Notes: generated from the letters alone by a model not told the origin. A DNA stretch of 41,610 nucleotides from Acidobacteriota bacterium (GCA_039930645.1 JBDTTJ010000003.1:1-41610), one strand, 5' to 3'; counted from the first letter of the stretch, positions 8,035 through 25,244 are shown. Program-made: numbers and translations.

Positions 8035-8181
8035 TACGGGTGCATCGCGGTCAAATCGGCCACCTGGAATTACCTTTCCCCTGCGCGCTTAGCGTAGAAG
8101 ACAACAGCTCCCACACGGCCGAACCGCTGCGCTGGGGGACGCGCAATCGGGTACGCCACAACCCAGTGGAGGACAGACACG

Positions 8182-9195
8182 ATGACTTTCCACGCGGTTT
8201 CAGAGGAACCATCCGGCTACCGCCGCGCTTGCAGTTCTCTCCGCGCCCTGGTCCTCGTTCTCATCGTGGGCGCATTTCTCGTAGCCTCACCTGCCGCGGC
8301 CATCTGCCACTACACCTTGTTGGAGCAGACAACGACCTTGTCCTGTTCTTCCTACGATGGTGTGAATTGGAGCTGCATTCTCTACATTACGAACTACTGG
8401 GATGTCGAGTGCCCAAGTGGTGGGGGCAACCCCGGGAACCCGCCAGGCGGTGGCGGCGCGTCTTGTCCGAGCTATGTATCGGTGACCCTCCCCGCCATTG
8501 ACGCGTCCGTCGTTGGAGGTACCGCTTTCCTTAGGGCCACGATCGACTCCGATGGATACGTTTCCTCACGTGCTAGCGGTCCCGGCGCGGATACGTCCAG
8601 CGTTTCCGGACCCGGGTCCTTTTCGTTCCCAGTCGACCTAAACGCGGTTCCTGTCGGCTCCAACACCTATACGGTGATCGCTACGGCCGGAGGATCAGGA
8701 GCCTGCCCGCCGGTGTCGAGTTTTGCCACGGGCCTGATCAGCCGGTCGTCCGCTACCGCGATAGCTCCATCGTCCTCCGGATTCGTCGTGATTCCAACAG
8801 GAGGCGCCTTCCTGCTGGGCCAGGTATCCATCGAGGGATACGATGCCTACGCCCGTATCACTGCATCGCCCGCGGGTAGCAACCTGCCGACCCTCTGGGC
8901 CGATCGTTCGGTTGCGCGGGTTGGCGTGACGCCCGTGTGGGCGCAGACCCAATTCAGCGACGTTACCGCAAATCACGGTATTGGAGGCATCGACTTCGCC
9001 TCTATGGTACCGATGCAGGGCTCGTACATTCCCGCCGACGACCCGTGGAACAAAACATATTCCGGGCAGCAGCAGCTGTGGGTGGGCTATCCGCCGGTGT
9101 CAACCGACTCACTTCTCGTGTGGATAATGTTCCCCGGGATTGGATCGGCACAAACACCCCTGCCCCAGCCGGACGCCGCGACGAGTCTTCAGTAG
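8182..9195 (+). CDS. Hypothetical exported protein: Cys-rich N-terminal module, Gly/Pro linker, beta-rich body
   Basis: GGAGG about 9 nt upstream of the ATG; hydrophobic signal ALVLVLIVGAFLVASPAAA; ICHY..SC..WSC..VECPSGGGNPGNPPGGGGASC; Ser/Thr/Gly/Val-rich remainder. Confidence 0.7.
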   Translation: MTFHAVSEEPSGYRRACSSLRALVLVLIVGAFLVASPAAAICHYTLLEQTTTLSCSSYDGVNWSCILYITNYWDVECPSGGGNPGNPPGGGGASCPSYVSVTLPAIDASVVGGTAFLRATIDSDGYVSSRASGPGADTSSVSGPGSFSFPVDLNAVPVGSNTYTVIATAGGSGACPPVSSFATGLISRSSATAIAPSSSGFVVIPTGGAFLLGQVSIEGYDAYARITASPAGSNLPTLWADRSVARVGVTPVWAQTQFSDVTANHGIGGIDFASMVPMQGSYIPADDPWNKTYSGQQQLWVGYPPVSTDSLLVWIMFPGIGSAQTPLPQPDAATSLQ

Positions 9196-9196
9196 T

Positions 9197-10006
9197 ATGT
9201 CCCTACGCGAAGTGTTCTTGCTACTTTGGCTAGCAGGCGCCTCCCCGGGACTACTCGGTGCGGGCGAGACGTCGGCTCCCGCTGGAGTGGTGGCAACCAT
9301 CGGGGACGAGCGGGTTGCGAGTGACGAGACGTTTCAGGACAACGTGCCGAGCAATCCGCGATATACACCGGAGCGCGCGTGCAAACTCGTCGTTGCGCGC
9401 GTTCGCGAAGCTCTTGTTCGACGCGTGTTACGGCAGGTCAAGCGGCTGCCCTCGGATGAGGAAATTAGCCGTTCCCTACAGGGACATCTCCCCTCCCCCG
9501 AGGCGCTCGAAAAGCATTACGCCTCTCTCAAGAGCACGCAGGACGCGCTTGAGGACGCACTCAATCGAAGCGAGTCGGACCCGACGCGGGACCACGAGAT
9601 ATGGCAGACCTCAGTAAGCCAGTACATGTCCTACGAGAAGTGGGTCGAGTATCGCACTAGGCTGCGAGGGCAGCATCGAGGCGTGCCTTTTCCTGCGAAG
9701 GTGTCTTCCGCAGAACTACTTGAATCGGCGCGCGGTTTGCGGGGCTTGGTCGTAGAGGAAAGTTTCCAGCGTTGGCTTCAGGCCGATTGGGCGCGTCAGA
9801 ACCCCGGGGAGGCAGCTCCGGCCGAGGAAGGCCGGGTCCCTACTCCAGACGATGGCCGGTCGTCGAGCGCATCCCTTCAACTTAGATTCTGGCGGCTCGA
9901 GTTGATCGCAACGGCGGTAACAATCCTTCCAGAGTGGCATTGTTCTCAGGTTCAGCCTGCCGATTTGATCGCACCGCAGGTCCAGTGGCCAGAAGTCTCG
10001 AAATAG
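9197..10006 (+). CDS. Hypothetical exported protein, weakly SurA N-terminal-like
   Basis: ATG 9197 is 1 nt after the upstream TAG. Signal-like MSLREVFLLLWLAGASPGLLGAG; VVATIGDERV ... REALVRRVL..LPSDEEI resembles SurA/PrsA N-domain patterns; no PPIase motif seen. Confidence 0.55.
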   Translation: MSLREVFLLLWLAGASPGLLGAGETSAPAGVVATIGDERVASDETFQDNVPSNPRYTPERACKLVVARVREALVRRVLRQVKRLPSDEEISRSLQGHLPSPEALEKHYASLKSTQDALEDALNRSESDPTRDHEIWQTSVSQYMSYEKWVEYRTRLRGQHRGVPFPAKVSSAELLESARGLRGLVVEESFQRWLQADWARQNPGEAAPAEEGRVPTPDDGRSSSASLQLRFWRLELIATAVTILPEWHCSQVQPADLIAPQVQWPEVSK

Positions 10007-10015
10007 GAGCGAAGG

Positions 10016-10834
10016 ATGAAGAGCATCACGTTTGCGACAGCCTTAATGCTGTCGATCGCGGCGGCCCACGTATGTGCGCAGGTAAAGGAAACGGGGCGGA
10101 AGGTGGAAGTGGAGGTGCCGACATTCAAGTCCCCGGAGGCGGCGCTGGGATGGGCGAAGAGCCAGATCGCGGCGGCGCAGAAAGTGGCGCCGCTACAGGC
10201 GCGCGAAGAATTTCTAATGAAGGCGGCGTCGGCCTCGCAGACGGCTGAGGCGTGGAGAGATGCCTCGACCGAGGTTAGGGTCGAGGCCGCGCTTGTGGGG
10301 GCCGAGGCCTTCCTCGGCCTGAGCGCGCCTCTGAATGCTCAGAGCGCCATGGCCAGGGTACGGCGCGAGGACGTAAGGAACACCCCGCTCGCGGCCGCTT
10401 TCTTTGAAAGAGCAGGCGAGGCTGCTGAATTACGCGGCGATCGGCGCAGCGCCCACGTCGCTTACCAGACTGGGCTAAGCGCGTCTCCTTCTGCGGATGT
10501 AAGGGTGCTTCTTCTGTTCCGAGCGGGGACGAATGCCTTTGCTCTCACCGAATATGAGAGATCCGCCGGGCTCTTGGAGGAAGCCCTCGCAAACTTGCCG
10601 GATGGAAGTGCGAGGGCTTCAATCGCCGAGGTGGATCTTGGTGGCGCCTATGCAAGGCTGAAGGACCGAGTTCGGGCAGAGGCATGGTTACACCGGGCAA
10701 CACAATCTCTCGACCGTAGTTCGAAGGGCGGGAGTTCGACGACGACGGGAAAGGACACCTTTATTCCCGAGCCCTCTAGCGATGAATTGCGGAAGCGGAT
10801 TTCTGACGTGGCGAATTCCCTGCGAGGTCTTTGA
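10016..10834 (+). CDS. Exported alpha-helical, TPR-like protein
   Basis: AGGAG RBS; signal peptide MKSITFATALMLSIAAAHVCAQ; TPR-like helices (FERAGEAAELRGDRRSAHVAYQTGL; FRAGTNAFALTEYERSAGLLEEAL; DLGGAYARLKDRVRAEAWLHRA). Confidence 0.7.
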   Translation: MKSITFATALMLSIAAAHVCAQVKETGRKVEVEVPTFKSPEAALGWAKSQIAAAQKVAPLQAREEFLMKAASASQTAEAWRDASTEVRVEAALVGAEAFLGLSAPLNAQSAMARVRREDVRNTPLAAAFFERAGEAAELRGDRRSAHVAYQTGLSASPSADVRVLLLFRAGTNAFALTEYERSAGLLEEALANLPDGSARASIAEVDLGGAYARLKDRVRAEAWLHRATQSLDRSSKGGSSTTTGKDTFIPEPSSDELRKRISDVANSLRGL

Positions 10835-10956
10835 TCCAGAGATAGGTCCGATCAAGACCGCATTCCAAATCTGTGATTGCAAAGACGAGCAGGTGGGATC
10901 CGTTATGGCTGCCCCCCAGGGTGCCTTGGTAAAGTGACCTTGGCCCCGAAAGCTAG

Positions 10957-11233
10957 TGTGATTAGCAGAGGTTTCGCGGACAGGCCCCCGGGTTCTCCGG
11001 CGGATGTTATTCACAGATCAGGCGGCGGAGTTCACCACCTCCCCAGAGCCTTCGGCGCCGGCCGCCTTACCGTCGAGGAAGGCTTGGTAAGGCGTGCGGC
11101 CCTGGGTGCGGCAGCCGCGGTAGGCGCGATCGCGGTCGTAGAAGTCGAGGTGGGTGTCGAGGTCGGGCTGAAACTGGTTGATCGAAGTGTAAAGCGTCTT
11201 GCGGAAGGCGACGGAGGGGAACGCCTCCTTCAC
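10957..11233 (-). mobile_element. IS481-family insertion sequence remnant (transposase C-terminus plus terminal repeat)
   Basis: ORF 11018..11233 VAFRKTLYTSINQFQPDLDTHLDFYDRDRAYRGCRTQGRTPYQAFLDG resembles the IS481 transposase C-terminus (..LY.S..LQ.DLD..L..YN..R.H.G....GRTP). Downstream lies a 26-bp TGT...ACA segment (10957-10982) like IS481 ends. N-terminal and DDE portions are missing. Confidence 0.72.
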
Positions 11234-12430: not shown

Positions 12431-13672
12431 TCAGGCGGCGCGGAGGGCGCGCTCGAGCCCCCAGGTCACGACGAGGGCGGCCGTGAGTGCGGGCAGCGTT
12501 CCGCCAGTCGACCCGGCGAGGAAGTACGCGGCCGCTCCCGCGGCCCAGCCGCACATCCCCGGGATCGCGAAGCCGCCATTCCGGCTTGCGGGCCCCTTCT
12601 CGTCGTACAGCTCCGGGACGCGGACGGGCATTCTGAGCAGGAAGAAGTGCGCGAGGAGGACGCCGCCCACGGGCACGAGGAGGCCGCCGAGGAGCAGCAT
12701 GAAGTCCGCGTATCGATCGAGCCAGCCCGAGAAGAGCGACAGGAGCGCGCCGACGACGCCGATCGTCCAGACGGACGCGCGGTCCTTCGCGGCCGGCACG
12801 AGGCTCTTCCACGCGAGCGCCGACATGTAGATGTTCACGAAGTTCGTCGTGAGCGTCGCGAGAGCGAGGAGGAGGGCGCCGAGGCCGCCGAGCCCCGCCG
12901 CCGCGAGCATCGCGCCGGGATTCGTCGACCCCGCGGCGCGTGCCGCGACGAAGCCGAGCGGCACGAACCACAGGCTCGTGAGCGCGAGGCCGAAGAACAC
13001 GGCGGCCGCGGCCTTCCCCGGCGAGCGCGTGTAGCGCGGGTAATCGCCGAAAACGAGGAGCCACGAGACCTGGTAGCCGATCACGACGTCGAGGCCGCGC
13101 ACCGCCGTCATCGAACCGTTCCCGGGCGCCGCCGTGACGGCCGCCGGGAGGCGCAGAAACGCGAACGTCAGAATGCCGCCGACCACGAGGAGAAGGGGCA
13201 CGGCAAGGCGGTCCGCGTGGCGGACGGCCCGCGGCCCTCCCGCGACGACAGCCGTCGCGAGGAGGCCGAGCCCGAACGCCCAGAGCCGGACGCTCGCGGG
13301 TCCGCCGAAGACCCGCGCGCACGCGGACGCCGCGATCACGTTGTTCACGGCGATCCATGCGAAGTTCGTGACGTAGAGGATGAGCGAGACGAGCGCCCCG
13401 CCGCGCAGGCCGAGCGCCGCCCGGCAGGCGATGACGGACGGAACGCCGAGGCGCGGCCCGAGAGGTGTGAGCGCGGCGACGAGCGCGGTGCCGAGGACGA
13501 TGCCGCCGCCCGCGAGAAGCGCGGCTTGCCCGAAGCCGAATGCGGGCGCGAGGCTCGCGCCCGTCTGAAGCGTCGTCGCCACGAGATTCGCGCCCGCGAT
13601 GATGAGGAAGAGATCGACGGGCGACTGCGTCTTCTCGGCTTCGGAGACGGGCCCGAGGTCGGCGGCCTGCAT
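12431..13672 (-). CDS. NCS1-family purine/cytosine permease (CytX/CodB-like)
   Basis: About 12 TM helices; GPRLGVPSVIACRAALGLRGG, FAWIAVN, SWLLVFGDYPRY, TLTTNFVNIYMS. ATG overlaps the upstream TGA. Confidence 0.85.
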   Translation of the reverse strand: MQAADLGPVSEAEKTQSPVDLFLIIAGANLVATTLQTGASLAPAFGFGQAALLAGGGIVLGTALVAALTPLGPRLGVPSVIACRAALGLRGGALVSLILYVTNFAWIAVNNVIAASACARVFGGPASVRLWAFGLGLLATAVVAGGPRAVRHADRLAVPLLLVVGGILTFAFLRLPAAVTAAPGNGSMTAVRGLDVVIGYQVSWLLVFGDYPRYTRSPGKAAAAVFFGLALTSLWFVPLGFVAARAAGSTNPGAMLAAAGLGGLGALLLALATLTTNFVNIYMSALAWKSLVPAAKDRASVWTIGVVGALLSLFSGWLDRYADFMLLLGGLLVPVGGVLLAHFFLLRMPVRVPELYDEKGPASRNGGFAIPGMCGWAAGAAAYFLAGSTGGTLPALTAALVVTWGLERALRAA

Positions 13673-14697
13673 CAGCTGCCGAGCCTAACCGCGCCGGACT
13701 GCCCCGCGAGAAAGGAAATGACCGCCTCTTCTCCCCAGTAGACCGGGCGGAGCCCGCGTGCGGCCACCCAGCCCGCGTGGCCGCCGCGCTCCGTGACGAG
13801 GAAGCGGACGGAGGGGGAAGCCGCGGCACGCGCCGCGTCGATGGACGCGGGGGGCACGAACGGATCGTCGAGGGCCGACAGGCAGAGCGTCGGCACGTCG
13901 ATCGCGCCGAGGACGCGGAGCGAGCTCGACCGGGCGTAGTAATCGTCCGCGCCCGCGAAGCCGTGCAGCGGCGCTGTCGCCGCGTCGTCGAACTCGCGGA
14001 ACGTCCAGGCGCCGCGCGCGCGATCGAGATCCATCCCCGCCGCCGCGGCCGGAAAGCGGCGCGCGATCGACTCGCCCTTGGGCACGAGAGTCTTCACGAA
14101 CGCGCGGACGTAGAGCGCGGAGGGGAAGGATGCCATGTAGCGGTCGCCGGCCGCGAGGTCGTACGGGACCGAAAGCGTCGCCGCCGCGGCGACGAGCCGC
14201 TCGCCGGGATGCTCGCCGAGCCACTTGAGGAGGACGTTTCCGCCGAGCGACACGCCCGCGGCGAGGATGGGCCGTCCGTGGCGCGCCGCGAGAGTCCGGA
14301 GGACGAAGTCGAAGTCCGCCGTCTCGCCGGAGTGGTAGAGCCGCGGCCGCTCGTTCGGGAGCGGGCGCGAGAGGTCGAGGGGATCGCGCGCGCAGGAGCG
14401 GAAGTTCAGGACGGACGGCCGGAACCCGGCGGTGAGTCCGAGCGCCAGAAGGCCCTGCGCGTAGGCCGAATGCGAGCTCCCCTCCAGCCCGTGGAGGATC
14501 AGGAGCGGCGGCGCGCCGTCCGGGACGGGCGCATCCGCGTGGTCGAGGACGATCGTGTCGCCGTCGGGCGCCGTGAGCGCCTCGCGGCGGAGCCGCACCT
14601 GCCGCCGGGAGCGCGCGAGACGCCCCCAGACCGTCTGGGCGTGCGCGCCCCGCAGCCACCAGGCGGGGGAAAAGCCCGTGCGGGTTCCTCCGTCCAT
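13672..14697 (-). CDS. YheT-family alpha/beta hydrolase
   Basis: WWLRGAHAQT, ILHGLEGSSHSAY, NFRSC, RLYHSGETAD, GVSLGGN nucleophile, FREFDDAATAPLHGF..DYY, ALDDPF, GGHAG. Start ATG 14697 chosen over GTG 14745. Confidence 0.9.
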   Translation of the reverse strand: MDGGTRTGFSPAWWLRGAHAQTVWGRLARSRRQVRLRREALTAPDGDTIVLDHADAPVPDGAPPLLILHGLEGSSHSAYAQGLLALGLTAGFRPSVLNFRSCARDPLDLSRPLPNERPRLYHSGETADFDFVLRTLAARHGRPILAAGVSLGGNVLLKWLGEHPGERLVAAAATLSVPYDLAAGDRYMASFPSALYVRAFVKTLVPKGESIARRFPAAAAGMDLDRARGAWTFREFDDAATAPLHGFAGADDYYARSSSLRVLGAIDVPTLCLSALDDPFVPPASIDAARAAASPSVRFLVTERGGHAGWVAARGLRPVYWGEEAVISFLAGQSGAVRLGS

Positions 14698-14773
14698 CGC
14701 GTCGCGCCTTTCGTCCCGCCGCGCGGGGCGCTCGTCCCGCCGCACGCCTTCCGGGGAGCGGGGATTCTATTGT
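14690..14773 (+). promoter_or_regulatory. LytTR-type triple direct repeat plus -10 (site 1)
   Basis: ccGTCCa (G at 14692), tcGTCCC (14713), tcGTCCC (14734): exact 21-bp period; boxes 2 and 3 share TCGTCCCGCCGC. TATTGT at 14768-14773. Confidence 0.65.
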
Positions 14774-14831
14774 CGGCCGGCGCCGCCGGCTGAACGTCCG
14801 GAAAACCGGAGCGAACTCTGTCTGGCCGTCT

Positions 14832-14915
14832 TCGTCCCCGCGGAGGGGAAGCCCGGCACGCTCCGCCCACGCCCGTCCCGGACCGGTCGCAAGACCCGCG
14901 GGGCTGCCCCACCTT
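14832..14915 (+). promoter_or_regulatory. LytTR-type repeat plus -10 (site 2, upstream of TBDR1)
   Basis: tcGTCCC (G at 14834), degenerate ccGGCAC (14855), ccGTCCC (14875); CACCTT at 14910-14915, 35 bp after the last box. Confidence 0.55.
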
Positions 14916-14973
14916 CCGGCTCGAGGCGCGAGTCCCGTATCCACGGGCCGTCGCGCCGCTCAGGAGGATGTGC

Positions 14974-17937
14974 ATGCGTCGAATCGGACTCCGCGTCCTG
15001 GTCTCCTTCGCTCTTCTTCTTTCCGCCGTGGCGGTGCGCGCCCAGAGTGTGACGACCGCGGCGCTTCGAGGCCGCGTCACGAACGAGGGTCAGGGCCTTC
15101 CCGGCGTCCTCGTCACGGTGAAGTCAGGCTCGCTGCAGGGCGCGCGCACGGCTTCGACGTCCGCGAACGGCGACTTCGTGTTTCCGGGCCTGCCGCCGGG
15201 CGAGTACACGGTCGGGTTCGCGCTGCAGGGGTTCAGGGCGGAGAGCCGCACGCAGCCGGTCACGGTCGGACAGGAAGCGCGGCTCGACGTCGTGCTCAGC
15301 CTCGCGGGCGTCGAGACGGCGACGACGGTGGTCGCGAAGTCCGAGACCGTCGCCACGTCCACGCCTCAGGCGGCGCAGACGTTCACGAAGGAGCTCACGG
15401 ACAAACTGCCCGTCACGCGCACCCTGCTGTCGTCCGTCGCCCTCGCCGCCGGCGTGAACACGAACGGCCCGGGCTCGAGCGACCGGATCGGAAACGGGAC
15501 CAGCCCCGTCGTGACGATCTCCGGCGGCCAGTCCTTCGACAACCTCTTCACCGTGGACGGCGCTGTCGTGACCGACAACATCCGCGGCACGCCGAACAAT
15601 CTCTTCATCGAGGACGCGATCGCCGAGACCACGACGTCCACCTCGTCGGTGTCCGCCGAGTTCGGCCGCTTCACGGGCGGCGTCGTGAACACCGTCACGA
15701 AGTCGGGAGGCAACGCGTTTTCGGGCTCGTTCCGGACGACGTTCACGAACGCCGCGTGGTCGGCGACGACGCCGGCGAACGAGGCGACCCCGCAGAAGGT
15801 GAATCCCCAGTACGAGGCGACGCTCGGCGGGCCCATCTGGAAGGACCACGTCTGGTTCTTCGGCTCCGGCCGGTACTTCGACCAGACGGCGTCGGGGCAG
15901 ACGAGCTTCACGAGCCAGTCGTACCCGGTCGGGGACACGGAGAAACGCTACCAGGCCAAGCTCACGCTGACGCCTTTCGCGAACCACACGATCACGGGCA
16001 ACACCCTCCACGTCGACGAAGAGCAGACGAACTCGTCGTTCGGGACGATCATGGATCTCCTCAGCCTGGTGCCCGCGCGCCAGCTTCCGCAGGACATCCT
16101 CACCGTCAATTACAACGGCGTCCTGTCGAACACGTTCTTCGTCGAGGGCCTCTACTCGCGCCGGCAGTTCACGTTCCAGAACGCGGGTTCCCCGTACAAA
16201 GACCTGATCCAGGGCACGCTCATGCGCGATCTCTCGCGCGGCCGCGCCCGCTACAACGCGCCGACGTTCTGCGGCGTCTGCGATCCGGAGTCCCGCGACA
16301 ACCGCGACTTTCTCGTGAAAGGCACGTGGTTCCTCTCCACGGGCGCCCTCGGCTCGCACAACATCGTCGCCGGCTACGACAACTTCGCCGGGCAGCGCAA
16401 GGCGAACAACTACCAGTCGGGCAGCAACTACCGGATCTTCACGACGTCGACGGTCTTTGCGAACAACGACATCTATCCCGTGATGGACGGGAACTCGTAC
16501 ATCTACTACACGCCGATCACGAACCTGAGCAAGGGCACGGACGCGCTCACGCATTCCGTCTTCCTGAACGACTCCTGGCGCGTGAACGACCGGCTCTCGG
16601 TGAATCTCGGCGTCCGCTGGGACAAGAACCACGCCCAGGACAGCAACGGGGTCGTCCGCGCGGACGACAGCGCGTTCAGCCCGCGCCTCGCGGCGTCGTT
16701 CGACGTGACCGGAAAAGGCACGCTCCGCGTCGGCGCGAGCTACGCGAAGTACGTCGGCGCCATCCAGGACAGCCTCGTGGACTCGGCCTCCGACGGCGGT
16801 TCGCCGTCGACCTTCATCTGGTACTACCAGGGCTCGGGAGCGACGCCGATCAACGTGAACCCGGCTCCCGGGACGCCGCTCGTGACGCGCGCGCAGGCCC
16901 TCCAGCAGGTCTTCAACTGGTTCTTCGCGCAGGGCTGCCCGGACCTCACGACGTGCCGGCTCCCGCTCGGCTACGCGAACATCCCCGGCCTCACGACTCT
17001 CATACAGGGTTCGCTGTCCTCGCCGTCGACGGTCGAGTATGCCGCGACGGTCGCGGGCAACGTGGGGTCCTCGTTCGCCTACCGGGTCGACCTCGTGCGG
17101 CGCGAAGGCCGCGACTTCTACAACAGCGTGATCAACGGGTCGACGGGCACCGGCCAGGACGAGTTCGGGAACACGTTCGACGTCGGTTACATCAACAATT
17201 CGAACACCGCGGAGCGCAACTACACGGGCCTCCACACGAGCCTCTCGTACCGCAGCGGCGCCTTCAACGGCGGCGTGAACTGGACGTGGTCGCACACGCT
17301 CGGCAACCTGAACGGGGAGACGGCCGCTTCGGGCCCGGTGCCGAACGCGGGCGAGACGTATCCCGAGTACAAGAACCCGGCCTGGAACAACCCGTACGGG
17401 TCACTCGGGACGGACGAGCGCCACCGCGTGAAACTCTTCGCCTCGTACACGCTGCCGTTCATTCCGGCGAAGGTCGGATCGATCAACGTGAGCGCGATCC
17501 AGTCGATCGACACGGGCGTGCCGTACGGCGCCGTCGGGCTCGTGGACTCGCGGCGGTACGTCACGGGCGCGCCGGCTTACATCACGCCCCCGACGTCCGT
17601 GAACTACTACTTCACGGCCCGCGACGCGTTCCGGACGGACACGATCTACCGGACGGACCTCTCGCTCAACTTCACGACGCGGATCGCCGGCAGCGTCGAG
17701 ATCTTCGTGCAGCCGCAGGTCCTCAACGTCCTGAACCGCCAGGGACTCGTCGGCGTCAACACCGCGGTCCGCTCGGCCGTGAACGCGGGGACGGTGTATC
17801 AGCGCTTCAACCCGTTCACGACGGCGCCGGTGCAGGGCGTGAACTGGGACACCAGCTCGACGTTCGGCACGGCCCGCAACAACCTCGACTACCAGCTCCC
17901 GCGCACGTTCACGCTCGCGGCCGGCGTCAGGTTCTGA
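14974..17937 (+). CDS. TonB-dependent receptor with N-terminal carboxypeptidase-regulatory-like domain (Oar-like)
   Basis: AGGAGG at 14962-14967 favours ATG 14974. Signal peptide, LRGRVT..LPGVLVTV..G.F.F.GLPPGEY, plug motif SAEFGRFTGGVVNTVTKSGGN, FLNDSWRVNDRLSVNLGVRWD, C-terminal PRTFTLAAGVRF. Confidence 0.93.
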   Translation: MRRIGLRVLVSFALLLSAVAVRAQSVTTAALRGRVTNEGQGLPGVLVTVKSGSLQGARTASTSANGDFVFPGLPPGEYTVGFALQGFRAESRTQPVTVGQEARLDVVLSLAGVETATTVVAKSETVATSTPQAAQTFTKELTDKLPVTRTLLSSVALAAGVNTNGPGSSDRIGNGTSPVVTISGGQSFDNLFTVDGAVVTDNIRGTPNNLFIEDAIAETTTSTSSVSAEFGRFTGGVVNTVTKSGGNAFSGSFRTTFTNAAWSATTPANEATPQKVNPQYEATLGGPIWKDHVWFFGSGRYFDQTASGQTSFTSQSYPVGDTEKRYQAKLTLTPFANHTITGNTLHVDEEQTNSSFGTIMDLLSLVPARQLPQDILTVNYNGVLSNTFFVEGLYSRRQFTFQNAGSPYKDLIQGTLMRDLSRGRARYNAPTFCGVCDPESRDNRDFLVKGTWFLSTGALGSHNIVAGYDNFAGQRKANNYQSGSNYRIFTTSTVFANNDIYPVMDGNSYIYYTPITNLSKGTDALTHSVFLNDSWRVNDRLSVNLGVRWDKNHAQDSNGVVRADDSAFSPRLAASFDVTGKGTLRVGASYAKYVGAIQDSLVDSASDGGSPSTFIWYYQGSGATPINVNPAPGTPLVTRAQALQQVFNWFFAQGCPDLTTCRLPLGYANIPGLTTLIQGSLSSPSTVEYAATVAGNVGSSFAYRVDLVRREGRDFYNSVINGSTGTGQDEFGNTFDVGYINNSNTAERNYTGLHTSLSYRSGAFNGGVNWTWSHTLGNLNGETAASGPVPNAGETYPEYKNPAWNNPYGSLGTDERHRVKLFASYTLPFIPAKVGSINVSAIQSIDTGVPYGAVGLVDSRRYVTGAPAYITPPTSVNYYFTARDAFRTDTIYRTDLSLNFTTRIAGSVEIFVQPQVLNVLNRQGLVGVNTAVRSAVNAGTVYQRFNPFTTAPVQGVNWDTSSTFGTARNNLDYQLPRTFTLAAGVRF

Positions 17938-17957
17938 GCCCTCGGCGACGGAGTTCG

Positions 17958-17994
17958 ACGCACCGGCCGGCAACCCGGACCCCGGCCGGTGCGT
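17958..17994 (+). terminator. Stem-loop after TBDR1
   Basis: 13-bp perfect stem ACGCACCGGCCGG / CCGGCCGGTGCGT with an 11-nt loop; no U-tract. Confidence 0.55.
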
Positions 17995-18004
17995 ATCCGA
18001 TCCC

Positions 18005-19132
18005 GTGGCCGTCGCCCTCGGAAGGAGACCCGTCTTCATCTTCGGCGTGTGGACGGCCGCGGGCGTCTTCTTCGCGAGCCAGCTCTACTTCCTTTACCCG
18101 ATCACGTCCGGCGGCCGGGAGATCTCCTTCGGCCGCGCGCTCCTCATCAACGTGCCCTTTTACTGGCTCTGGGCGCTCCTGACGCCCGCGATCCTCGGTC
18201 TCGCGCGGCGCTTTCCGCTGGAGCGCTCGCGCTGGAAGAGGAGCCTCGCGGTGCACGCGGGGGCCAGCGTCGCCCTCTCGGCGATCCAGCTCCTCGTCGC
18301 GGGAGCGCTCCTTTACGCGGTGGTCCACTCGGGTGGCCCGAGCACGCTCTCGTGGGCGCTCGGCAGCTTCTTCCGCCTGAACTTCCACGCGAACGTTCTG
18401 ACCTACGCGGCCCTCGTCGCGCTCGCGTGGGCCGCCGAGACGTACGCGAAGTACCGCGACCGCGAGCTCGCGGCGTCGCGGCTCCAGACGCAGCTCGTGA
18501 GCGCTGAGCTCGGCGCGCTGAAGATGCAGCTCCAGCCGCACTTCCTTTTCAACACGCTCAACGCGATCGCGGCGCTCCTGAAGCGGAAGCCCGACGCGGC
18601 CGAGAGCATGGTTCTGCAGCTGGCCGAGTTCCTGCGGCTCACGCTCCGCAACACGGGGCGGGCGGAAGTGACGCTCCGCGAGGAGCTGGACTTCCTCGAG
18701 CGGTACCTCGCCATCGAGAAGACTCGCTTCGGGGAGCGCCTCTCGACGCGCTTTCGCATCCGCTCGGACGTCCTCGACGCGCGCGTGCCGAACCTCCTCC
18801 TTCAGCCCCTCGTCGAGAACGCGATCCGCCACGGAATCGCCCGCGACGCGAACGCAGGGCGGCTCGAGGTGAGCGCGACGCGCGAGGGCGGCCGCCTTCT
18901 CCTGCGCGTGGCGGACGATGGGCCCGGACTCGGGCCCGCGCCGGTCATCGAGGGGATCGGCCTCACGAACACGCGCGAGCGCCTCCGCCACCTTTTCGGC
19001 GAGGACTTCTCGCTGTCCTACGCGAACGCCCCGGGGGGAGGGTTCGCGATCGCGCTCGCCTTCCCGCTCGTCGCCGACCTTCCGGCCGCGGACGGCGACG
19101 CCGGCGAGACGCCCACCGCGTACGACGTCTAG
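18005..19132 (+). CDS. LytS/YehU-type sensor histidine kinase
   Basis: N-terminal multi-TM sensor; H-box LKMQLQPHFLFNTLNAI; EELDFLERYLAIEKTRF; LQPLVENAIRHG; VADDGPG; GIGLTNTRERL. Confidence 0.94.
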   Translation: MAVALGRRPVFIFGVWTAAGVFFASQLYFLYPITSGGREISFGRALLINVPFYWLWALLTPAILGLARRFPLERSRWKRSLAVHAGASVALSAIQLLVAGALLYAVVHSGGPSTLSWALGSFFRLNFHANVLTYAALVALAWAAETYAKYRDRELAASRLQTQLVSAELGALKMQLQPHFLFNTLNAIAALLKRKPDAAESMVLQLAEFLRLTLRNTGRAEVTLREELDFLERYLAIEKTRFGERLSTRFRIRSDVLDARVPNLLLQPLVENAIRHGIARDANAGRLEVSATREGGRLLLRVADDGPGLGPAPVIEGIGLTNTRERLRHLFGEDFSLSYANAPGGGFAIALAFPLVADLPAADGDAGETPTAYDV

Positions 19133-19137
19133 CGCGT

Positions 19138-19222
19138 TCCTCCCGCGCCCGCCCGCGGCCGTCCCGCGACGCGCCGCCGCGGTCCCCGAGGGCGCGACGC
19201 GGACGCGATCGCGACCGAGATT
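19138..19222 (+). promoter_or_regulatory. LytTR-type triple direct repeat plus -10 (site 3, upstream of the JAB-LytTR pair)
   Basis: tcCTCCC (19140), ccGTCCC (19161), cgGTCCC (19182): exact 21-bp period. GAGATT at 19217-19222, 35 bp after the last box and 8 nt before ATG 19231. Confidence 0.68.
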
Positions 19223-19230
19223 CAGGGGCG

Positions 19231-19845
19231 ATGACACGCCCCCGCAGCGCCTCGTGCCTCGCCGTTGCCGCGATCGCCGGGTGGAGCGCGCTCTCGACCG
19301 CCGCGCCGGGCGTCACGGGCGAGCCGGGTCTCGGCGCCGTCGGGCGCCGCGTCGCACCCGCGGATGCCCAACGTCTCCTCGAGGCGGAACTGCGCGACGA
19401 AGCGTTCCGGCTCTGGGAGGCGGGCGGATTCGGCGCGGACCGGACGGAACGCGCCGCGTGGGTCCTGCGGGCCCCGTCCGGCGTGGCGTGGCGGGTCTGG
19501 CCCTGGGACCGGCGGTACGAGCAGACGCGTTGGCTCGGTCCGACGCCCGCGGGCGCGTTCGCGATCGTCCACACGCACCCGGCCGTCGTCGACCCCCGGC
19601 CGTCTCCCGCAGACCGCGAGATCGCGGCACGCCTCCGGATCGCGGTCTATACGGTTTCCCGCAGCGGAATCTGGAGGACCGGACCGGACGGGGTGCTGAG
19701 CCGGATCCGGGACGAACGCTGGTGGGCCGGGTGCCGCAAGGGCCAGCCTTGTGGCGAGAGAGCCTCGGACGCAATCCCGGTCGCGATCGCCGGAAATCGT
19801 GAAGGCGCCGAAACCACGGCGGCCGCCTTGCGTATCACGGAGTGA
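19231..19845 (+). CDS. Exported protein with JAB/MPN (JAMM)-like metalloprotease motif
   Basis: Signal-like MTRPRSASCLAVAAIAGWSALSTAA; upstream Glu (TERAAWV) and IVHTHPAVVDPRPSPAD match E..HxH..SxxD; TGA overlaps the LytTR ATG (TGATG). Confidence 0.72.
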   Translation: MTRPRSASCLAVAAIAGWSALSTAAPGVTGEPGLGAVGRRVAPADAQRLLEAELRDEAFRLWEAGGFGADRTERAAWVLRAPSGVAWRVWPWDRRYEQTRWLGPTPAGAFAIVHTHPAVVDPRPSPADREIAARLRIAVYTVSRSGIWRTGPDGVLSRIRDERWWAGCRKGQPCGERASDAIPVAIAGNREGAETTAAALRITE

Positions 19846-20624
19846 TGCGCCCACACGTCCGCACGCTCATCGTGGACGACGAGCCTCTCGCGCGCGAGCG
19901 GCTGCGTACGCTCCTCGCCGAGGAGCCTGGCGTCGAAGTCGTCGGGGAGTGCGGCGACGGCTGCCAGGCCGTCGTCGCCATCGAAGAGCTCAAACCGGAC
20001 CTCGTGTTCCTGGACGTCGAAGTGCCGAACCTCGACGGGTTCCGGATCCTCGAGAGCGTCGGGGCAGACCGCATTCCCGCGATCGTGTTCGTGACGGCGT
20101 ACGACCATTACGCGCCTCGGGCGTTCGACGTGCGCGCCGTCGACTACATTCTGAAGCCGTTTGGCCGCGAGCGGCTCCAGAAGGCCCTCGAGCACGCGCG
20201 CGCTCAGATTACGCGCGGGAAGTCGACGGACATCTCCGGGCAGCTCGTGGCCCTTCTCGAGGGAATCCGCCCCCAGAAGAGCTATCTCAAGCGGATCATG
20301 ATCAAGTCGGGCGGGCGCCTGTATTTCCTGCGCACGGCCGAGATCGACTGGGTCGAGGCGGCGGGCAATTACCTTCGGCTCCACGCCGGCGCCGAGTCCC
20401 ACCTCTTGCGCGAGACGATGAACGGACTCGAGGCGAAACTGGACCCGGACCGCTTCATCCGGATCCACCGCTCGACGATGGTGAACATCGAGCGGATCAA
20501 GGAGCTCCAGCCCTGGTTCCACGGCGATTATGTCGTGATCCTCCGGGACGACCGCCAGCTCACCATGAGCGCGACGTACCGCGAAAAGCTCGACGAGCTG
20601 CGCGGCCGTGCGCTGCCTGCGTGA
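19845..20624 (+). CDS. LytTR-family response regulator (REC plus LytTR)
   Basis: IVDDEPLARERL, FLDVEVP, FVTAYD, VDYILKPF; LytTR domain IDWVEAAGNY..LRETMNGLEAKLDPDRFIRIHRSTMVN. Confidence 0.96.
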   Translation: MRPHVRTLIVDDEPLARERLRTLLAEEPGVEVVGECGDGCQAVVAIEELKPDLVFLDVEVPNLDGFRILESVGADRIPAIVFVTAYDHYAPRAFDVRAVDYILKPFGRERLQKALEHARAQITRGKSTDISGQLVALLEGIRPQKSYLKRIMIKSGGRLYFLRTAEIDWVEAAGNYLRLHAGAESHLLRETMNGLEAKLDPDRFIRIHRSTMVNIERIKELQPWFHGDYVVILRDDRQLTMSATYREKLDELRGRALPA

Positions 20625-20674
20625 CCCGCGGCGAGAGGACGGCGCCCGCGCCAAAGTCTTGAATGGGGGGGCGG

Positions 20675-20759
20675 CGGTCCCGGCCTCGCGCGACATCGCC
20701 CCCGCGGCGCTCGCGCCCGTCCCAAACCAGGTGTGGGGGAACCGGCGCGGACGCACGCT
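20675..20759 (+). promoter_or_regulatory. LytTR-type triple direct repeat plus -10 (site 4, upstream of TBDR2)
   Basis: cgGTCCC (G at 20677), tcGCCCC (20698), ccGTCCC (20719): exact 21-bp period. CACGCT at 20754-20759, 35 bp after the last box. Confidence 0.68.
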
Positions 20760-20802
20760 GCCCCGCAGGATCCGGCCTTTCGCCGGTCCGCGGGAGGAGT
20801 CC

Positions 20803-23800
20803 ATGCGTCATCGAGGTCGCATCGTGTTGTTTCTTTTTCTCACGGCGCTCGTTCCCGGCCCCGCGTTTGCGCAGACGACGGGCGACCTGGACGGGACCGT
20901 CGCAGACCAGAACGGCGGGCCGTTGCCCGGCGTGTCCGTCGAGCTGAAGTCGCCGAGCCTCCAGGGGTCCCGCGCGGCGGTCACGGACGGGGCCGGCCGC
21001 TACCGCTTTCCGGCGCTCGCTCCCGGTGTTTACGCGGTGACCGCGAAGCTCGCGGGCTTCTCGTCTGCCGAGCGGACGGGCTTGAGGGTCTCGCTCGGGG
21101 TCACGACGACGGCGGCCCTGCAGCTCGTCGTCTCCGTGAAGGAGAGCCTCGTCGTCACGGCCGAGGCGCCCGCGATCGACACGACGCGGACGACGATCGG
21201 GACGAACGCGACGCTCGAGACGATGCAGCGCCTGCCGATCGGGCGGAACTTCGTCTCGATCGCGAACACGGTCTCGGGGACGGGCACGGACGTCACGGGC
21301 AACATCACGATCTACGGCGCGACGGGTCTCGAGAACGCGTACATCATCGACGGCGTCAATACGACGGGCGTCAAGACGGGCACGCAGGCCAAGTCGCTCA
21401 ACAACGAATTCGTCCAGGAAGTCGAGGTCAAGACCGGAGGCTACGAGGCCGAGTACGGCCGTGTGCTCGGCGGCACGATCAACGTCGTCACGAAGTCCGG
21501 CGGCAACGAGTTCCACGGCGACGCATTCGGCTACTACGACGGGTCGTCCCTCGCGGCGAGCGACGCGCGCACCGCGGATCGCTCGGCCGTGAACCAGGGC
21601 CAGTTCTACAGCCCGAAGCGGGTCGACTTCGGTGCGGACCTCGGCGGGTACTTCGTGAAGGACCGCCTCTGGTTCTTCGGCGCCTACGACCGCGTGAACC
21701 AGGACCAGGACTACACGCGCACGCTCGCCCAGATCCGGACCGGGGCCGGCGGCACGACGCAGACCGGCGACACCGACACGTCCCGGAACAACCTGTTCTC
21801 CGGCAAGCTCACGTTCCGCCTCGGCGAGTCGAACACGGTCACGGCCTCGGTCTTCGGCGACCCGGGCACGTTCCACGGCCGGTACGACCTCACGCAGATC
21901 CCGGTCATGATCGGCGACAGCGGCGCCTGGATCGTGGACCGCGAGCTCGGCGGCACGGACGGGTCCCTCAAGTACGACGGGATCTTCGGGGCCGGGTTCC
22001 TCATCCAGGGCCAGTTCGGCTATCACACGGAGAAGCGCAGCGACACGAGCCCGGTCGCGAACCAGCCCTTCCGCGAGGTCCAGCAGGCCGGCTTCTCGAA
22101 CGAGGCGCTGCCGGGCTCGGGGCCCATCTACCTCGTCGACGAGAAGTACCAGCGCTCCGTCTACAAGCTCGCGGGCTCGATCTTCACGGGCGGTCACGAG
22201 ATCAAGGCCGGGATCGACTGGGAGCACCTGAACTCGGACTTCAACGAGTCCTATGGCGGGACCGACCGCATCCGGACGCGTCTCGCGACCGACGGCACTC
22301 TGCGCAACTACCAGCATCGTTACTTCGCCAAGACGCCCCTCAACGGCGCGAACTGCGTCGGGAAGATCGATCCGAACGGCCCGGCGGCGTTCCCGAACTG
22401 CACGGGCTACTCGATCGCGGCGACGGTCGACAACAACCCGATCACGGACAACGCGGCCCTTTTCGTCCAGGACTCGTTCCGGGTCACGAAGAACCTCACG
22501 ATCAACGCGGGCCTCCGCTACGAGCAGCAGGCCCTCAAGGACTACACCGGCGCGACGCTCATCAAGGTCACGGACGAGTGGGCTCCGCGCCTCGGCGTCG
22601 TCTGGGACTTCATGAACAACGGCAAGTCGAAGCTGTACGGCAACGTCGGCCGCTTCTACGAGGTCATCCCGCAGGACATCCAGACGCGCGCGCTCGGCAA
22701 CGAGTTCACGATCATCACGCGCAACTCGAGCGCGAACCCGAACCCGGTCGACCTCTTCCTCGGCGGGCCCGTCGTCCAGGGCGGCGAGCTCACACAGAAC
22801 GGCCTCAAGGGCATGTACCAGGACGAGGCGATCCTCGGCTTCGAGTACGAGATCGCGAAGAACTGGGCGGTCGGCGCCAAGGGCATCTATCGCTCGCTCG
22901 GGCGCGTGATCGAGGACCGGTGCGACCTCGCGATCAACCCCGACCTCGCCTCCTACTTCAATCCGGCGAGCCCCGCGACGTGCGCCCTCATCAACCCCGG
23001 CCAGGGCGACGCGCTCGGGAGCATCAAGGACCCGTCTGACACGCATTGCTATCCGAACGGGTCGACGGACGCGGCCGGCAACCTCGTCCCGAGCTCTCCT
23101 TGCGACTCGACGCAGCCGCGGCGCTACTTCCGCGGCGTCGAGGTCACGGCCTCTCACCGCTTCTCGGACCGCTTCTACGTCCTCGCGAGCTATCTGTATT
23201 CGAAGCTCGAGGGCAACTACTCCGGCAACCTCTCGCAGACGCGCGAGGGCGGCCAGGCCGACCCGAACATCAACGCGGACTTCGACTACCCCGGCCTCGT
23301 CGTGAACGCGTCGGGCCGGCTCCGGAACGACCGCACGCACCAGGTGAAAATGTCGGGCTACTACGCGTTCTCGTTCGGCCTCACGGTCGGGGCGAACGCG
23401 AACTTCGCGACGGGACGCCCGTACTCGATCCGCGGCTGCGCGGCGGACGTCACGGCGTGCGCCGCGGGCTACAACCAGGAGGGCTACCTCGTGCCGCGGG
23501 GCTCCGCGGGCGACCTCCCGTCCACGTTCGAGGCGGACCTGCACCTCGAGTACGGCTTTCGCCTCGGAGGACTCACGGTCACGCCGCTCCTGGACGTCTT
23601 CAACATCGTGAACCGGCAGGGCGTCACGAGCCGGGAGGAGCTCTTCAACAACACGAGCGGCCTCGCCGGCAACGACGCGCGCAGCGGCATCGGACAGGCG
23701 GGGTGCACCGCGCAAAACGCGAGCCTCTCGAACGCGGCGTGCGCCTCGAACCCGACGTACGGCAAGGACATCAACTGGCAGTCGCCGAGGGTCGTGCGCG

Positions 23801-23823
23801 TGGGCGCGCGCCTCTCGTTCTGA
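20803..23823 (+). CDS. TonB-dependent receptor with N-terminal carboxypeptidase-regulatory-like domain
   Basis: GGAGGAG RBS before ATG 20803; signal MRHRGRIVLFLFLTALVPGPAFAQ; GGYEAEYGRVLGGTINVVTKSGGNEFHG; FVQDSFRVTKNLTINAGLRYE; C-terminal PRVVRVGARLSF. Confidence 0.94.
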   Translation: MRHRGRIVLFLFLTALVPGPAFAQTTGDLDGTVADQNGGPLPGVSVELKSPSLQGSRAAVTDGAGRYRFPALAPGVYAVTAKLAGFSSAERTGLRVSLGVTTTAALQLVVSVKESLVVTAEAPAIDTTRTTIGTNATLETMQRLPIGRNFVSIANTVSGTGTDVTGNITIYGATGLENAYIIDGVNTTGVKTGTQAKSLNNEFVQEVEVKTGGYEAEYGRVLGGTINVVTKSGGNEFHGDAFGYYDGSSLAASDARTADRSAVNQGQFYSPKRVDFGADLGGYFVKDRLWFFGAYDRVNQDQDYTRTLAQIRTGAGGTTQTGDTDTSRNNLFSGKLTFRLGESNTVTASVFGDPGTFHGRYDLTQIPVMIGDSGAWIVDRELGGTDGSLKYDGIFGAGFLIQGQFGYHTEKRSDTSPVANQPFREVQQAGFSNEALPGSGPIYLVDEKYQRSVYKLAGSIFTGGHEIKAGIDWEHLNSDFNESYGGTDRIRTRLATDGTLRNYQHRYFAKTPLNGANCVGKIDPNGPAAFPNCTGYSIAATVDNNPITDNAALFVQDSFRVTKNLTINAGLRYEQQALKDYTGATLIKVTDEWAPRLGVVWDFMNNGKSKLYGNVGRFYEVIPQDIQTRALGNEFTIITRNSSANPNPVDLFLGGPVVQGGELTQNGLKGMYQDEAILGFEYEIAKNWAVGAKGIYRSLGRVIEDRCDLAINPDLASYFNPASPATCALINPGQGDALGSIKDPSDTHCYPNGSTDAAGNLVPSSPCDSTQPRRYFRGVEVTASHRFSDRFYVLASYLYSKLEGNYSGNLSQTREGGQADPNINADFDYPGLVVNASGRLRNDRTHQVKMSGYYAFSFGLTVGANANFATGRPYSIRGCAADVTACAAGYNQEGYLVPRGSAGDLPSTFEADLHLEYGFRLGGLTVTPLLDVFNIVNRQGVTSREELFNNTSGLAGNDARSGIGQAGCTAQNASLSNAACASNPTYGKDINWQSPRVVRVGARLSF

Positions 23824-23909: not shown

Positions 23910-25244
23910 ATGACGTTTGCCGCGCTCGCGCTCGTCCTCGCGTCGACGAAGCTCCTTCCGCCCACTCCTGCGACGCCGTTCGCGCCGGGCCAGATCCTCC
24001 GCGTTCCCTCCGCCGCGATGGGCGGCGTGCGAGAGGTCGTCGTCCGCGTGCCGGAACCCCGCCCCGGCGGTCCCACCCGCTTTCCGGTCGTTTACGTCCT
24101 GGACGCAGGAGAGGGGTTCCTGCCGGCGGCGGCGGCGGCGGGCTTTCTCGCGGCGCACCTGTCGATGCCGAACGCGATCGTCGTCGGAATCCGGCACGCG
24201 GACCGCGGCTACGAGCTCACGCCGGCGCCGGCCGTTTCCGGCCCCGTGCCCGGCGTGCCGCGTCCGGGAGGCGCGGACGCGCTCCTCGCGCATCTCGCGG
24301 AGGAGGTCATTCCCCTCGTCGAGAGCCGCTATCCCGTGCAGCCCTACCGGGTCCTCGTCGGGCACTCGCTCGGAGGCCTCTTCGCGGTCCACGCGCTCGT
24401 GTCGCGGCCGGCCCTCTTTCAGGGATACGTTCTTCTCGACCCCGCCCTCTGGTGGGACGGAGGCGCCGTCGCGCGCCGGCTCGAGGCCTTCTTCCGCGGC
24501 CACCCCGACGCGCGCGCGCGGCTCGTCCTCGTGGAGAGCCCGGGCGGCGACGGCGGCCCGGCGGATCCAAGGCTCCCCGGCGTGCGCTTCCGGCGCGTCG
24601 TCGTGGAGGGCGAGAGCCACGAGACGCTCGCCTACCGCGGGATCTACGAGGGTCTGCGCGCGCTCTTCTCCGATTACCCGCCGGCTTACCGGCGCGATGC
24701 GGAGGCGGCGACGGCCGCCGCTCTCGAGGCGCAGTACGCCGCGCTCTCGCGGGAGCTCGGGTTCGCGATCGCCGTGCCGGCGGCGGCGCGCGCCGAGGTC
24801 GAGGAGCGGATCGCGGCGCGCGCGGCGCGGGCGGCCACGGCCACGGCCTCGGCCGCACCGGCCGTTCCCCCGATCGCAGCGGCGGCGGCCGCGCCGTTCG
24901 TCGGGACGTGGACGGGCACGCTTCGCACCGAGCCCGGGCGTCCGGTCCGGGAAACCCTGACGTTCACCTTCACGGACGGCCGCCTGTCGGGGTCTTGCGT
25001 CGCACACGGGGTCGCAATGGACGGGGGCGACTTCCGGTTCGGCCTTTCCGCGGTGAGGGTCACGGCCGACGGAATCGAATGGGAGCGCGAGAACCGCGGC
25101 GGCGGAGTCTGCGCTTCTCGCGGGCGCCTGAGTCCGGACGGCGTCCTGGCGGGCACCGAGGAGCTGCGCGGCGGCCCGGCGCCTCCGCCCGGCTTCGTGC
25201 TGCCGGTCGTCACGTTCTCCTTCACGCGCGTTTCCGCGCCCTGA
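23910..25244 (+). CDS. IroE/Fes-like alpha/beta esterase with Ala-rich linker and C-terminal beta domain
   Basis: RFPVVYVLDAG, NAIVVGI, GGADALLAHLAEEVIPLVESRY, LVGHSLGGLF nucleophile elbow, PALWWD, EGESHET; tail begins FVGTWTGTL. Confidence 0.85.
   Translation: MTFAALALVLASTKLLPPTPATPFAPGQILRVPSAAMGGVREVVVRVPEPRPGGPTRFPVVYVLDAGEGFLPAAAAAGFLAAHLSMPNAIVVGIRHADRGYELTPAPAVSGPVPGVPRPGGADALLAHLAEEVIPLVESRYPVQPYRVLVGHSLGGLFAVHALVSRPALFQGYVLLDPALWWDGGAVARRLEAFFRGHPDARARLVLVESPGGDGGPADPRLPGVRFRRVVVEGESHETLAYRGIYEGLRALFSDYPPAYRRDAEAATAAALEAQYAALSRELGFAIAVPAAARAEVEERIAARAARAATATASAAPAVPPIAAAAAAPFVGTWTGTLRTEPGRPVRETLTFTFTDGRLSGSCVAHGVAMDGGDFRFGLSAVRVTADGIEWERENRGGGVCASRGRLSPDGVLAGTEELRGGPAPPPGFVLPVVTFSFTRVSAP

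Follow-up and report, generated by a model that had tools for sequence, protein, structure and literature searches.

Phased three-box arrays as putative LytTR operators at TonB-dependent receptor promoters of an Acidobacteriota bacterium

The 41,610-nucleotide stretch considered here (GCA_039930645.1 JBDTTJ010000003.1:1-41610; hereafter the window) is an entire contig of 41.6 kb from an Acidobacteriota bacterium whose assembly (G000) comprises 3.4 Mb at 70% G+C and is 79% complete. The nearest public relatives of the window are labelled Thermoanaerobaculia or Acidobacteriota. Our subject is a set of four short arrays, each made of three GTCCC-type boxes at a 21-bp period followed at a fixed distance by a -10-like hexamer, which lie in the gaps of a gene cluster encoding two TonB-dependent receptors (TBDR1 and TBDR2), a histidine kinase and a response regulator with a LytTR DNA-binding domain. 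An initial annotation had proposed that this geometry, repeated four times, marks activator-dependent promoters, and the four arrays and their hexamers lie where it placed them.

Genes and arrays at the locus

The genes of the cluster and its flank, with domain assignments from Pfam, are as follows.

13672-14697, minus strand: alpha/beta hydrolase
14974-17937, plus strand: TBDR1 (CarboxypepD_reg and OMP_b-brl_4 domains), putative target of array 2
18005-19132, plus strand: histidine kinase (PF06580 His_kinase and HATPase_c), 68 bp past TBDR1
19231-19845, plus strand: 204-aa protein of no firm family, its gene overlapping the regulator gene
19842-20624, plus strand: response regulator with REC and LytTR DNA-binding domains (LytTR 2.1e-25), the proposed box binder
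20803-23823, plus strand: TBDR2, putative target of array 4
23910-25244, plus strand: esterase

From the hydrolase through TBDR1, the kinase, the 204-aa protein and the regulator to TBDR2 this order is conserved. Arrays 1 and 2 share the 277-bp gap between the hydrolase and TBDR1 genes, array 3 lies between the genes for the kinase and the 204-aa protein, and array 4 between those for the regulator and TBDR2. Scores in the following list come from the weight matrix described in the next section.

14689-14738, plus strand: array 1, with boxes TCCGTCCA (14689-14696), TTCGTCCC (14710-14717) and CTCGTCCC (14731-14738) at a 21-bp period; score 30.0
14768-14773, plus strand: array 1 -10-like hexamer TATTGT, inside the invariant ATTCTATTGT
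14831-14879, plus strand: array 2, with boxes TTCGTCCC (14831-14838), the degenerate CCCGGCAC (14852-14859) and CCCGTCCC (14872-14879); score 25.3
14910-14915, plus strand: array 2 -10-like hexamer CACCTT (candidate TBDR1 promoter)
19137-19186, plus strand: array 3, with boxes TTCCTCCC (19137-19144), GCCGTCCC (19158-19165) and GCGGTCCC (19179-19186); score 24.7
19194-19222, plus strand: array 3 candidate promoter, with a partial -35 GCGACG (19194-19199), a 17-bp spacer and a -10 GAGATT (19217-19222)
20674-20723, plus strand: array 4, with boxes GCGGTCCC (20674-20681), ATCGCCCC (20695-20702) and CCCGTCCC (20716-20723); score 21.2
20754-20759, plus strand: array 4 -10-like hexamer CACGCT (candidate TBDR2 promoter)

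The period is 21 bp in all four arrays except for one 20-bp step in array 2, and the hexamers lie 34, 35, 35 and 35 bp past the G of the last box in arrays 1 to 4, respectively. An exact GTCCC is found in eight of the 12 boxes (starting at 14713, 14734, 14834, 14875, 19161, 19182, 20677 and 20719) and a one-base variant in three more (GTCCA at 14692, CTCCC at 19140 and GCCCC at 20698). The description of the boxes as GTCCC-type thus holds for 11 of the 12, but not for the one at 14855, which reads GGCAC, agrees in two of five letters, is no sequence match and occupies a weakly conserved position. Boxes 2 and 3 of array 1 sit in a longer direct repeat, TCGTCCCGCCGCNCG (14711 and 14732). Overall the repeats are imperfect, direct and 8-9 bp long with the consensus [T/C]C[C/G]GTC[C/A]C, and the informative positions of a 119-box matrix span 8 bp. 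Because a 21-bp period amounts to two helical turns, all repeats of an array lie on one face of the DNA.

If the hexamer spans -12 to -7, the predicted transcription starts are about 14780, 14922, 19229-19231 and 20766, the G of each box lies at about -89, -68 or -47, and some 6-7 bp separate the last box from the -35 position downstream in all four window arrays. Read as -10 elements of sigma-70-type candidate promoters, the hexamers retain A2 and T6 only; both letters had been singled out in the initial annotation, and both are invariant in orthologues. That annotation also saw no obvious -35 at any of the promoters, which is accurate in that -35 elements are generally weak or absent, but overlooks the partial GCGACG 17 bp before GAGATT at array 3. 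At array 3, 8 nt separate the end of the -10 from the ATG of the 204-aa gene, which is invariant, and a Shine-Dalgarno sequence is missing from this position in many relatives; a leaderless or near-leaderless operon of the 204-aa protein and the regulator, beginning at 19231, is therefore predicted.

Array 1 is arranged likewise in eight relatives, where its hexamer stands 7-14 nt before the ATG of a gene for a 122-126-aa protein (e.g. L026:1083-1463). Alignment of the window with eight relatives places a deletion junction at 14774-14793 (plus strand), directly after TATTGTCGGC, where about 370 bp are gone; the small gene downstream of array 1 has been removed, and its last codons and TGA (14791-14793) remain. 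No copy was found elsewhere in the G000 assembly, itself 79% complete (best tblastn E 0.53), and the loss may be a true deletion or an assembly artefact. With the small gene missing, promoter 1 is an orphan that now reads towards promoter 2 and TBDR1. The 122-126-aa protein matches no Pfam or NCBIfam family; as a lead only, the closest Atlas clusters carry Avidin_like (PF26421, score 0.96).

Other elements are found beside the arrays. A palindrome, TCCGGAAAACCGGA at 14797-14810, lies between the stop codon of the gene remnant, which it follows closely, and array 2, about 20 bp further on, and may be a second operator or a 3'-end hairpin; most relatives have TCCGGAnnnnCCGGA-like elements before array 2, and one subgroup has them before array 4. 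Both predicted receptor leaders contain hairpins (14925-14957 and 20768-20789) just before the ribosome-binding sites, with energies that are not significant relative to shuffles (z -0.95 and -1.55), and a similar hairpin precedes a third receptor gene, on contig C10, that is described below.

Recurrence and conservation of the arrays

To score the arrangement we used a weight matrix of 11 nt, derived from 119 boxes at orthologous sites in other genomes; an array score is that of one box plus those of boxes at 21+/-1 and 42+/-1. Scanning both strands of the window at a score of at least 18 yields exactly four arrays, identical to those of the initial annotation. Dinucleotide shuffles of the window hold 0.29 arrays on average and none of 300 reaches four. 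At a threshold of 21 and spacings of 12-31, there are four matches at 21, one each at 18 and 20, and none elsewhere. In the 3.4-Mb genome, both strands included, arrays 1, 2, 3 and 4 rank 1, 4, 5 and 10. Enrichment in the window is specific to spacing 21, the phasing on which the initial annotation had rested its case; genome-wide, no such excess is seen at low thresholds (see below). GTCCC itself occurs about 1.4 times per kb per strand. One triple of three perfect GTCCCC at a 21-bp period (contig C140:211-257) falls in the coding sequence of a Pro/Ser-rich linker that follows a signal peptide; we discounted it as a chance occurrence, and it demonstrates that good triples can arise in this way.

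We searched 61 genomes for the regulator, using no locus of G037 or G042. Orthologues (82-95% identity) occur in 15 genomes of the same genus with the gene order retained, TBDR1 being missing from four. Intergenic alignments covered nine genomes for array 1, 11 for array 2, 15 for array 3 and 14 for array 4 (one locus with a 940-bp insert was omitted), and in these the boxes, the 21-bp phase and the hexamers are kept while the spacers have diverged; anchored on the hexamer, arrays 3 and 4 align without gaps across 14-15 genomes. The box cores of array 1 are conserved in 7/9, 8/9 and 9/9 genomes, and its proximal box is GTCCC in 9/9. For box 1 this conservation is confounded by coding, since the start codon of the hydrolase gene, which runs divergently on the minus strand, shares bases with the box. 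In array 2, GTCCC is found in 9/11 genomes at box 1 and 11/11 at box 3, but in 0/11 at box 2, which is degenerate throughout (one GTCAG). Box 2 of array 3 is GTCCC in 14/15, and box 3 is GTCCC in 10, GTCAC in two and ATCAC in three; in array 4 the GTC is kept in 12/14, 10/14 and 13/14 genomes for boxes 1 to 3. Some arrays have a weak middle or distal box (scores 3.0-3.5 and 7.6), but all three phased positions are conserved.

A2 and T6 are invariant in all four hexamers across the genus orthologues, including array 4 (14/14). Around them, CA and CTT of the array 2 hexamer are invariant in 11/11 genomes, and at array 3 both CGAGATT and the GACG of the -35-like element in 15/15. When 16 loci were compared, namely 15 from relatives (5.9-11.8 kb) and the window's own 12-kb stretch, all matches of at least 18 but one were on the gene strand, and few lay away from promoter sites. 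A subgroup of the genus (L032, L034 and L036-L040, at ~4600-4720 oriented) has an additional array between the TBDR1 or hydrolase gene and the kinase gene; the 68-bp gap between TBDR1 and the kinase in the window is without one.

The association of array and regulator extends beyond the genus. Arrays scoring at least 20 lie beside the regulator gene in six of nine loci from other genera and families of the order (L017-L025). Across 80 loci from several phyla that encode relatives of the regulator (497 kb), there are 15 distinct arrays of at least 20 at spacing 21, against 0-5 at eight control spacings within 13-29, and such arrays are found in 9/21 loci whose regulator is at least 54% identical but in 3/59 loci below 54%. 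YCCGTCCC arrays at 21 bp accompany regulator relatives in other acidobacterial classes, and because arrays also occur in genomes of 54-61% G+C, richness in G+C is not their cause. Among the regulator-positive TBDR2 orthologues examined, 14/14 have an array, with a score of 21-30 in 13.

The promoter geometry recurs with the arrays. Outside the genus, NANNNT stands at +35 from the G of the last box in 9/19 arrays, and every other offset from 25 to 45 is represented at most twice. Relatives of lower G+C have recognisable -35/-10 pairs at the same offsets: a Blastocatellia locus (L046) reads box-7 bp-TTGCGG-17 bp-TAGATT, a locus of Solibacteraceae has an extended -10, TGgTATAGG, at +33 before its kinase gene, and another locus has TACATT at +35. 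Together with the conservation of boxes, phase and hexamers in the genus, these pairs lend computational support to the original suggestion of activator-type promoters.

The best intergenic match in the rest of the genome is a fifth array.

C10:13941-13895 (L121:3895-3941), minus strand: fifth array; score 26.2

It lies in the 140 bp between two divergent genes, one of which, downstream of the array, encodes a third CarboxypepD_reg TonB-dependent receptor; the genome has some 10-12 receptor genes of this type. The array is retained in four regulator-positive genomes. In G001, a 99% complete genome in which no regulator orthologue was found, all of its boxes are damaged: boxes 1 and 3 have lost the core G, and a 2-nt deletion breaks the spacing. 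This decay, from one genome, is suggestive only. Upstream of the fifth array there is a conserved perfect palindrome, CTGATGCAGACGCATCAG, as well as CATAGGATCATC, and this region is possibly the site of another regulator.

The LytTR regulator as candidate activator

We consider it likely that the arrays are operators of the LytTR regulator encoded in the cluster, and that from them it would activate sigma-70-type promoters of the two TonB-dependent receptor genes and of its own operon. It is the sole DNA-binding protein found in the conserved cluster. The arrays have the repeat length of LytTR direct repeats (8-11, up to 13 bp), their 11-13-bp spacer and corresponding period (about 20-22 bp), and a linked LytTR regulator; their period and repeat length, and their predicted position, fit the descriptions of LytTR operators that are compared below. 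A PDB sequence search with the regulator gave receiver-domain matches alone among the matches listed, and nothing on DNA recognition. In the kinase, neither a 5TM-Lyt nor a GAF sensor domain was detected with Pfam.

The proposed mechanism begins with the kinase, which would phosphorylate the regulator on a signal. Once phosphorylated, regulator molecules may cooperatively fill the phased repeats, which lie on one helix face a short way before a weak or missing -35, and bring RNA polymerase to promoters that are otherwise weak. We infer that the result is activation rather than repression: TBDR1 and TBDR2 would be induced, the kinase probably being co-transcribed behind TBDR1, and induction of the regulator's own two-gene operon would provide positive feedback. 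In relatives, the small avidin-like gene that is lost here would be induced as well.

Several observations weigh against this interpretation. The box is short and of low information (about 7.7 bits), and genome-wide at threshold 20 there is no excess of triples at a spacing of 21 (17, versus 7-17 at other spacings), while for exact GTCCC pairs the enrichment at 21 bp is slight (31 pairs, versus ~15-30 at multiples of three). Taken singly, the box is therefore a weak motif, and the regulon is small. Derived from orthologues of the sites it scores, the matrix tests an arrangement and is not an independent discovery of the motif. The middle boxes of both receptor promoters are poor here (scores 3.5 and 3.0), and CACCTT and CACGCT are poor matches to a -10. 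Counts across genomes overstate the support because the relatives are not independent. Several loci with close relatives of the regulator show no array within 3 kb (e.g. L048 and L050-L053). Our reading is favoured by five same-genus genomes where no regulator orthologue was found and where the nearest TBDR2 relatives lack an array in the 400 nt upstream (best scores -0.2 to 11.3), but these relatives are only 61-71% identical and may be paralogues; the decay of the fifth array in G001 is a single case. Finally, the fifth array departs from the common geometry, with a candidate -10 only 7 nt past the G of the last box.

This last position would fit repression or a different promoter, and it leads to the question of the sign of regulation. 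That the regulator binds the arrays but represses, or activates some promoters and represses others, seems unlikely to us. A LytTR protein, CoxC, does repress from three direct repeats, according to the part of PMC11347149 drawn on here. Repression at some sites is possible, especially at the array on C10 if the conserved (C/T)A(C/A)ATT is its -10, as the boxes there would lie at about -61, -40 and -19 relative to this element and overlap the core promoter. Array 1, moreover, abuts the start codon of the divergent hydrolase gene, and its occupancy could hinder hydrolase expression. By contrast, the arrays of the window end about 6-7 bp upstream of the -35 position, a placement associated with activation in the portions of the cited papers used here. 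Weak or absent -35 elements, as found here, would be expected if the promoters depend on an activator.

Other families of regulators also bind direct repeats, so the boxes might instead be operators of a factor encoded elsewhere, for example a winged-helix response regulator, with the linkage to the LytTR gene a coincidence of synteny. We regard this as quite improbable, since the arrays track the lineage of the regulator into other classes and phyla with different gene neighbours, are absent or decayed in genomes where the regulator was not found, and combine a 21-bp period with 8-9-bp repeats, which is a LytTR signature, in a conserved cluster where no other DNA-binding gene was found. We find it hardly credible that chance or the composition of 70% G+C DNA produced the pattern, or that it is a structured RNA in the leaders, since despite the frequency of GTCCC and the equally good C140 triple, evidently due to chance, no shuffle yielded four arrays, other spacings gave 0-1 matches, the boxes are conserved amid diverged spacers and recur at lower G+C, and the arrays neither match Rfam nor fold better than shuffles.

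Two other types of element were considered and rejected. For a riboswitch or structured RNA, there was no Rfam match at E<=1 in 14000-21500, and the folding of the arrays is no better than that of shuffles (z +2.09 and -0.07). Sigma-54 and ECF-type (extracytoplasmic function) promoters were judged by eye: the GGCAC of array 2 is unconserved, a CGTC-type -10 is missing 16-17 bp beyond the GAAC that follows box 3, and the regulator is without an AAA+ domain.

If the regulator does activate from these arrays, the cluster may belong to something larger. A possible though rather doubtful extension is that a LytTR two-component regulon with this cluster as its core is widespread among Acidobacteriota. 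Its small membrane kinase would sense an external nutrient, possibly with the help of the co-transcribed, secreted JAB/DUF4329-like protein, and three-site arrays would serve to induce dedicated TonB-dependent receptors together with an avidin-like binding protein of the cytoplasm, in part from leaderless transcripts. Such a regulon, if true, would control receptors by a route distinct from the usual Fur, ECF-sigma/anti-sigma and hybrid two-component ones. The 204-aa protein, which is probably the operon partner of the regulator, has a hydrophobic N-terminus and an HxH...SxxD motif; a sub-threshold match to Prok-JAB (E 0.0013) and nearest Atlas clusters of DUF4329/Prok-JAB are a lead only, and it could be a sensor accessory. 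One further LytTR gene is found in the genome, in a second pair on contig C103; the genome scan gave no YCCGTCCC array of at least 19 at this pair, whose own motif was not sought. Elsewhere in the window, the stretch 7001-11000 has a G+C of 0.61-0.64, versus 0.68-0.76 in the remainder, and few long frames of high third-position G+C were called in it; it could hold RNA genes or foreign DNA.

Comparison with known LytTR systems

Gene regulation is almost unexplored in Acidobacteriota, notably in the uncultured class Thermoanaerobaculia. A search of the open-access literature returned nothing relevant on LytTR regulators in acidobacteria or on LytTR regulators with TonB-dependent receptors. The arrays do not represent a new principle; they resemble LytTR direct-repeat promoters. 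New are the association of three repeats with a LytTR system of the classical two-component type, a motif rich in GC, the putative TonB-dependent receptor targets and the lineage. What emerges is a concrete operator that can be tested (YCCGTCCC in triplicate at 21 bp), together with a promoter geometry, a candidate cognate regulator and a small predicted regulon of two to three TonB-dependent receptors plus autoregulation.

According to PMC6193735, the sites of LytTR regulators consist of two direct repeats of 9 bp, separated by a 12-bp spacer (range 11-13) and located 4-11 bp upstream of the -35, and autoregulation is common. The promoters of AgrA, ComE, PlnC/D and HdrR/BrsR described there share with ours the 9-bp direct repeats, the 12-bp spacer and, if our predictions hold, the placement 4-11 bp upstream of -35 and positive autoregulation. 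They differ in having two AT-rich repeats (ACCNCTTAN etc.) that serve peptide-signalling or membrane-inhibitor circuits of Firmicutes, whereas the repeats here are three, GC-rich and associated with receptors of Acidobacteriota.

The initial annotation had likened the boxes to the site of AlgR from Pseudomonas aeruginosa. The comparison leads to the correct protein family, since the cluster contains a gene for a LytTR response regulator, which that annotation did not mention, but the boxes are not AlgR sites. AlgR is itself a LytTR response regulator, and its 9-bp site CCGTTCGTC starts with CCGT like many of the boxes (PMC4064291, in the section bearing on this); that CCGT is all they share, the remaining positions being TCGTC in AlgR and TCCC here, so that three to four of the last five positions differ, against the one or two changes that the 9-bp core tolerates. 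By the same portion of that paper, AlgR sites are typically not repeats 12 bp apart and can be hundreds of bp from the start.

Closer in architecture are BtsS/BtsR (YehU/YehT) and YpdA/YpdB of Escherichia coli, which likewise pair a LytS-type kinase of PF06580 with a REC-LytTR regulator and induce a nutrient transporter through direct repeats at a 21-bp period (PMC4847170, as far as its text was drawn on). That text gives LytTR repeats of 9-11 nt with spacers of 11-13 nt, and a LytS-type kinase that with YpdB controls a transporter gene. The differences lie in the repeat sequence, in the targets, which here would be TonB-dependent receptors and the regulator's own operon, and in the co-encoded JAB-like protein. 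The best NCBIfam matches of the regulator are BtsR (167.9 bits, cut-off 246) and LytR (141.8 bits, cut-off 375), both below the equivalog cut-offs, and because of such scores we do not regard it as an orthologue of BtsR or YpdB. In the oligonucleotides printed in PMC4847170, we see an imperfect third copy 21 bp upstream of the two described YpdB repeats (GGCATTTCAT), and in its YehT/BtsR fragment three ACCRCTYA-like words 20 and 21 bp apart; both are our readings of the published sequences and not those of the authors. Three-repeat arrays may be common in this clade.

The number of repeats brings the arrays closest to those of RcoM1 from Paraburkholderia xenovorans and CoxC from Afipia carboxidovorans, which bind three imperfect, evenly spaced repeats at a sigma-70 promoter through a LytTR domain. 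In the part of PMC11347149 used here, these are three 8-bp repeats at 12-13-bp spacing, and most LytTR regulators are said to activate from upstream of the -35. The two proteins are one-component regulators with a haem-PAS or MHYT sensor, in contrast to the REC-LytTR regulator and separate kinase of our cluster. Their repeat is TTCNNGCA or TTNNNGCN rather than YCCGTCCC, and their targets are genes of carbon monoxide (CO) oxidation rather than outer-membrane receptors; CoxC, in addition, overlaps the -35 and represses. If the arrays are operators of the cluster's regulator, the three-repeat LytTR operator, hitherto described for the one-component CO sensors RcoM and CoxC, would extend to a classical two-component system.

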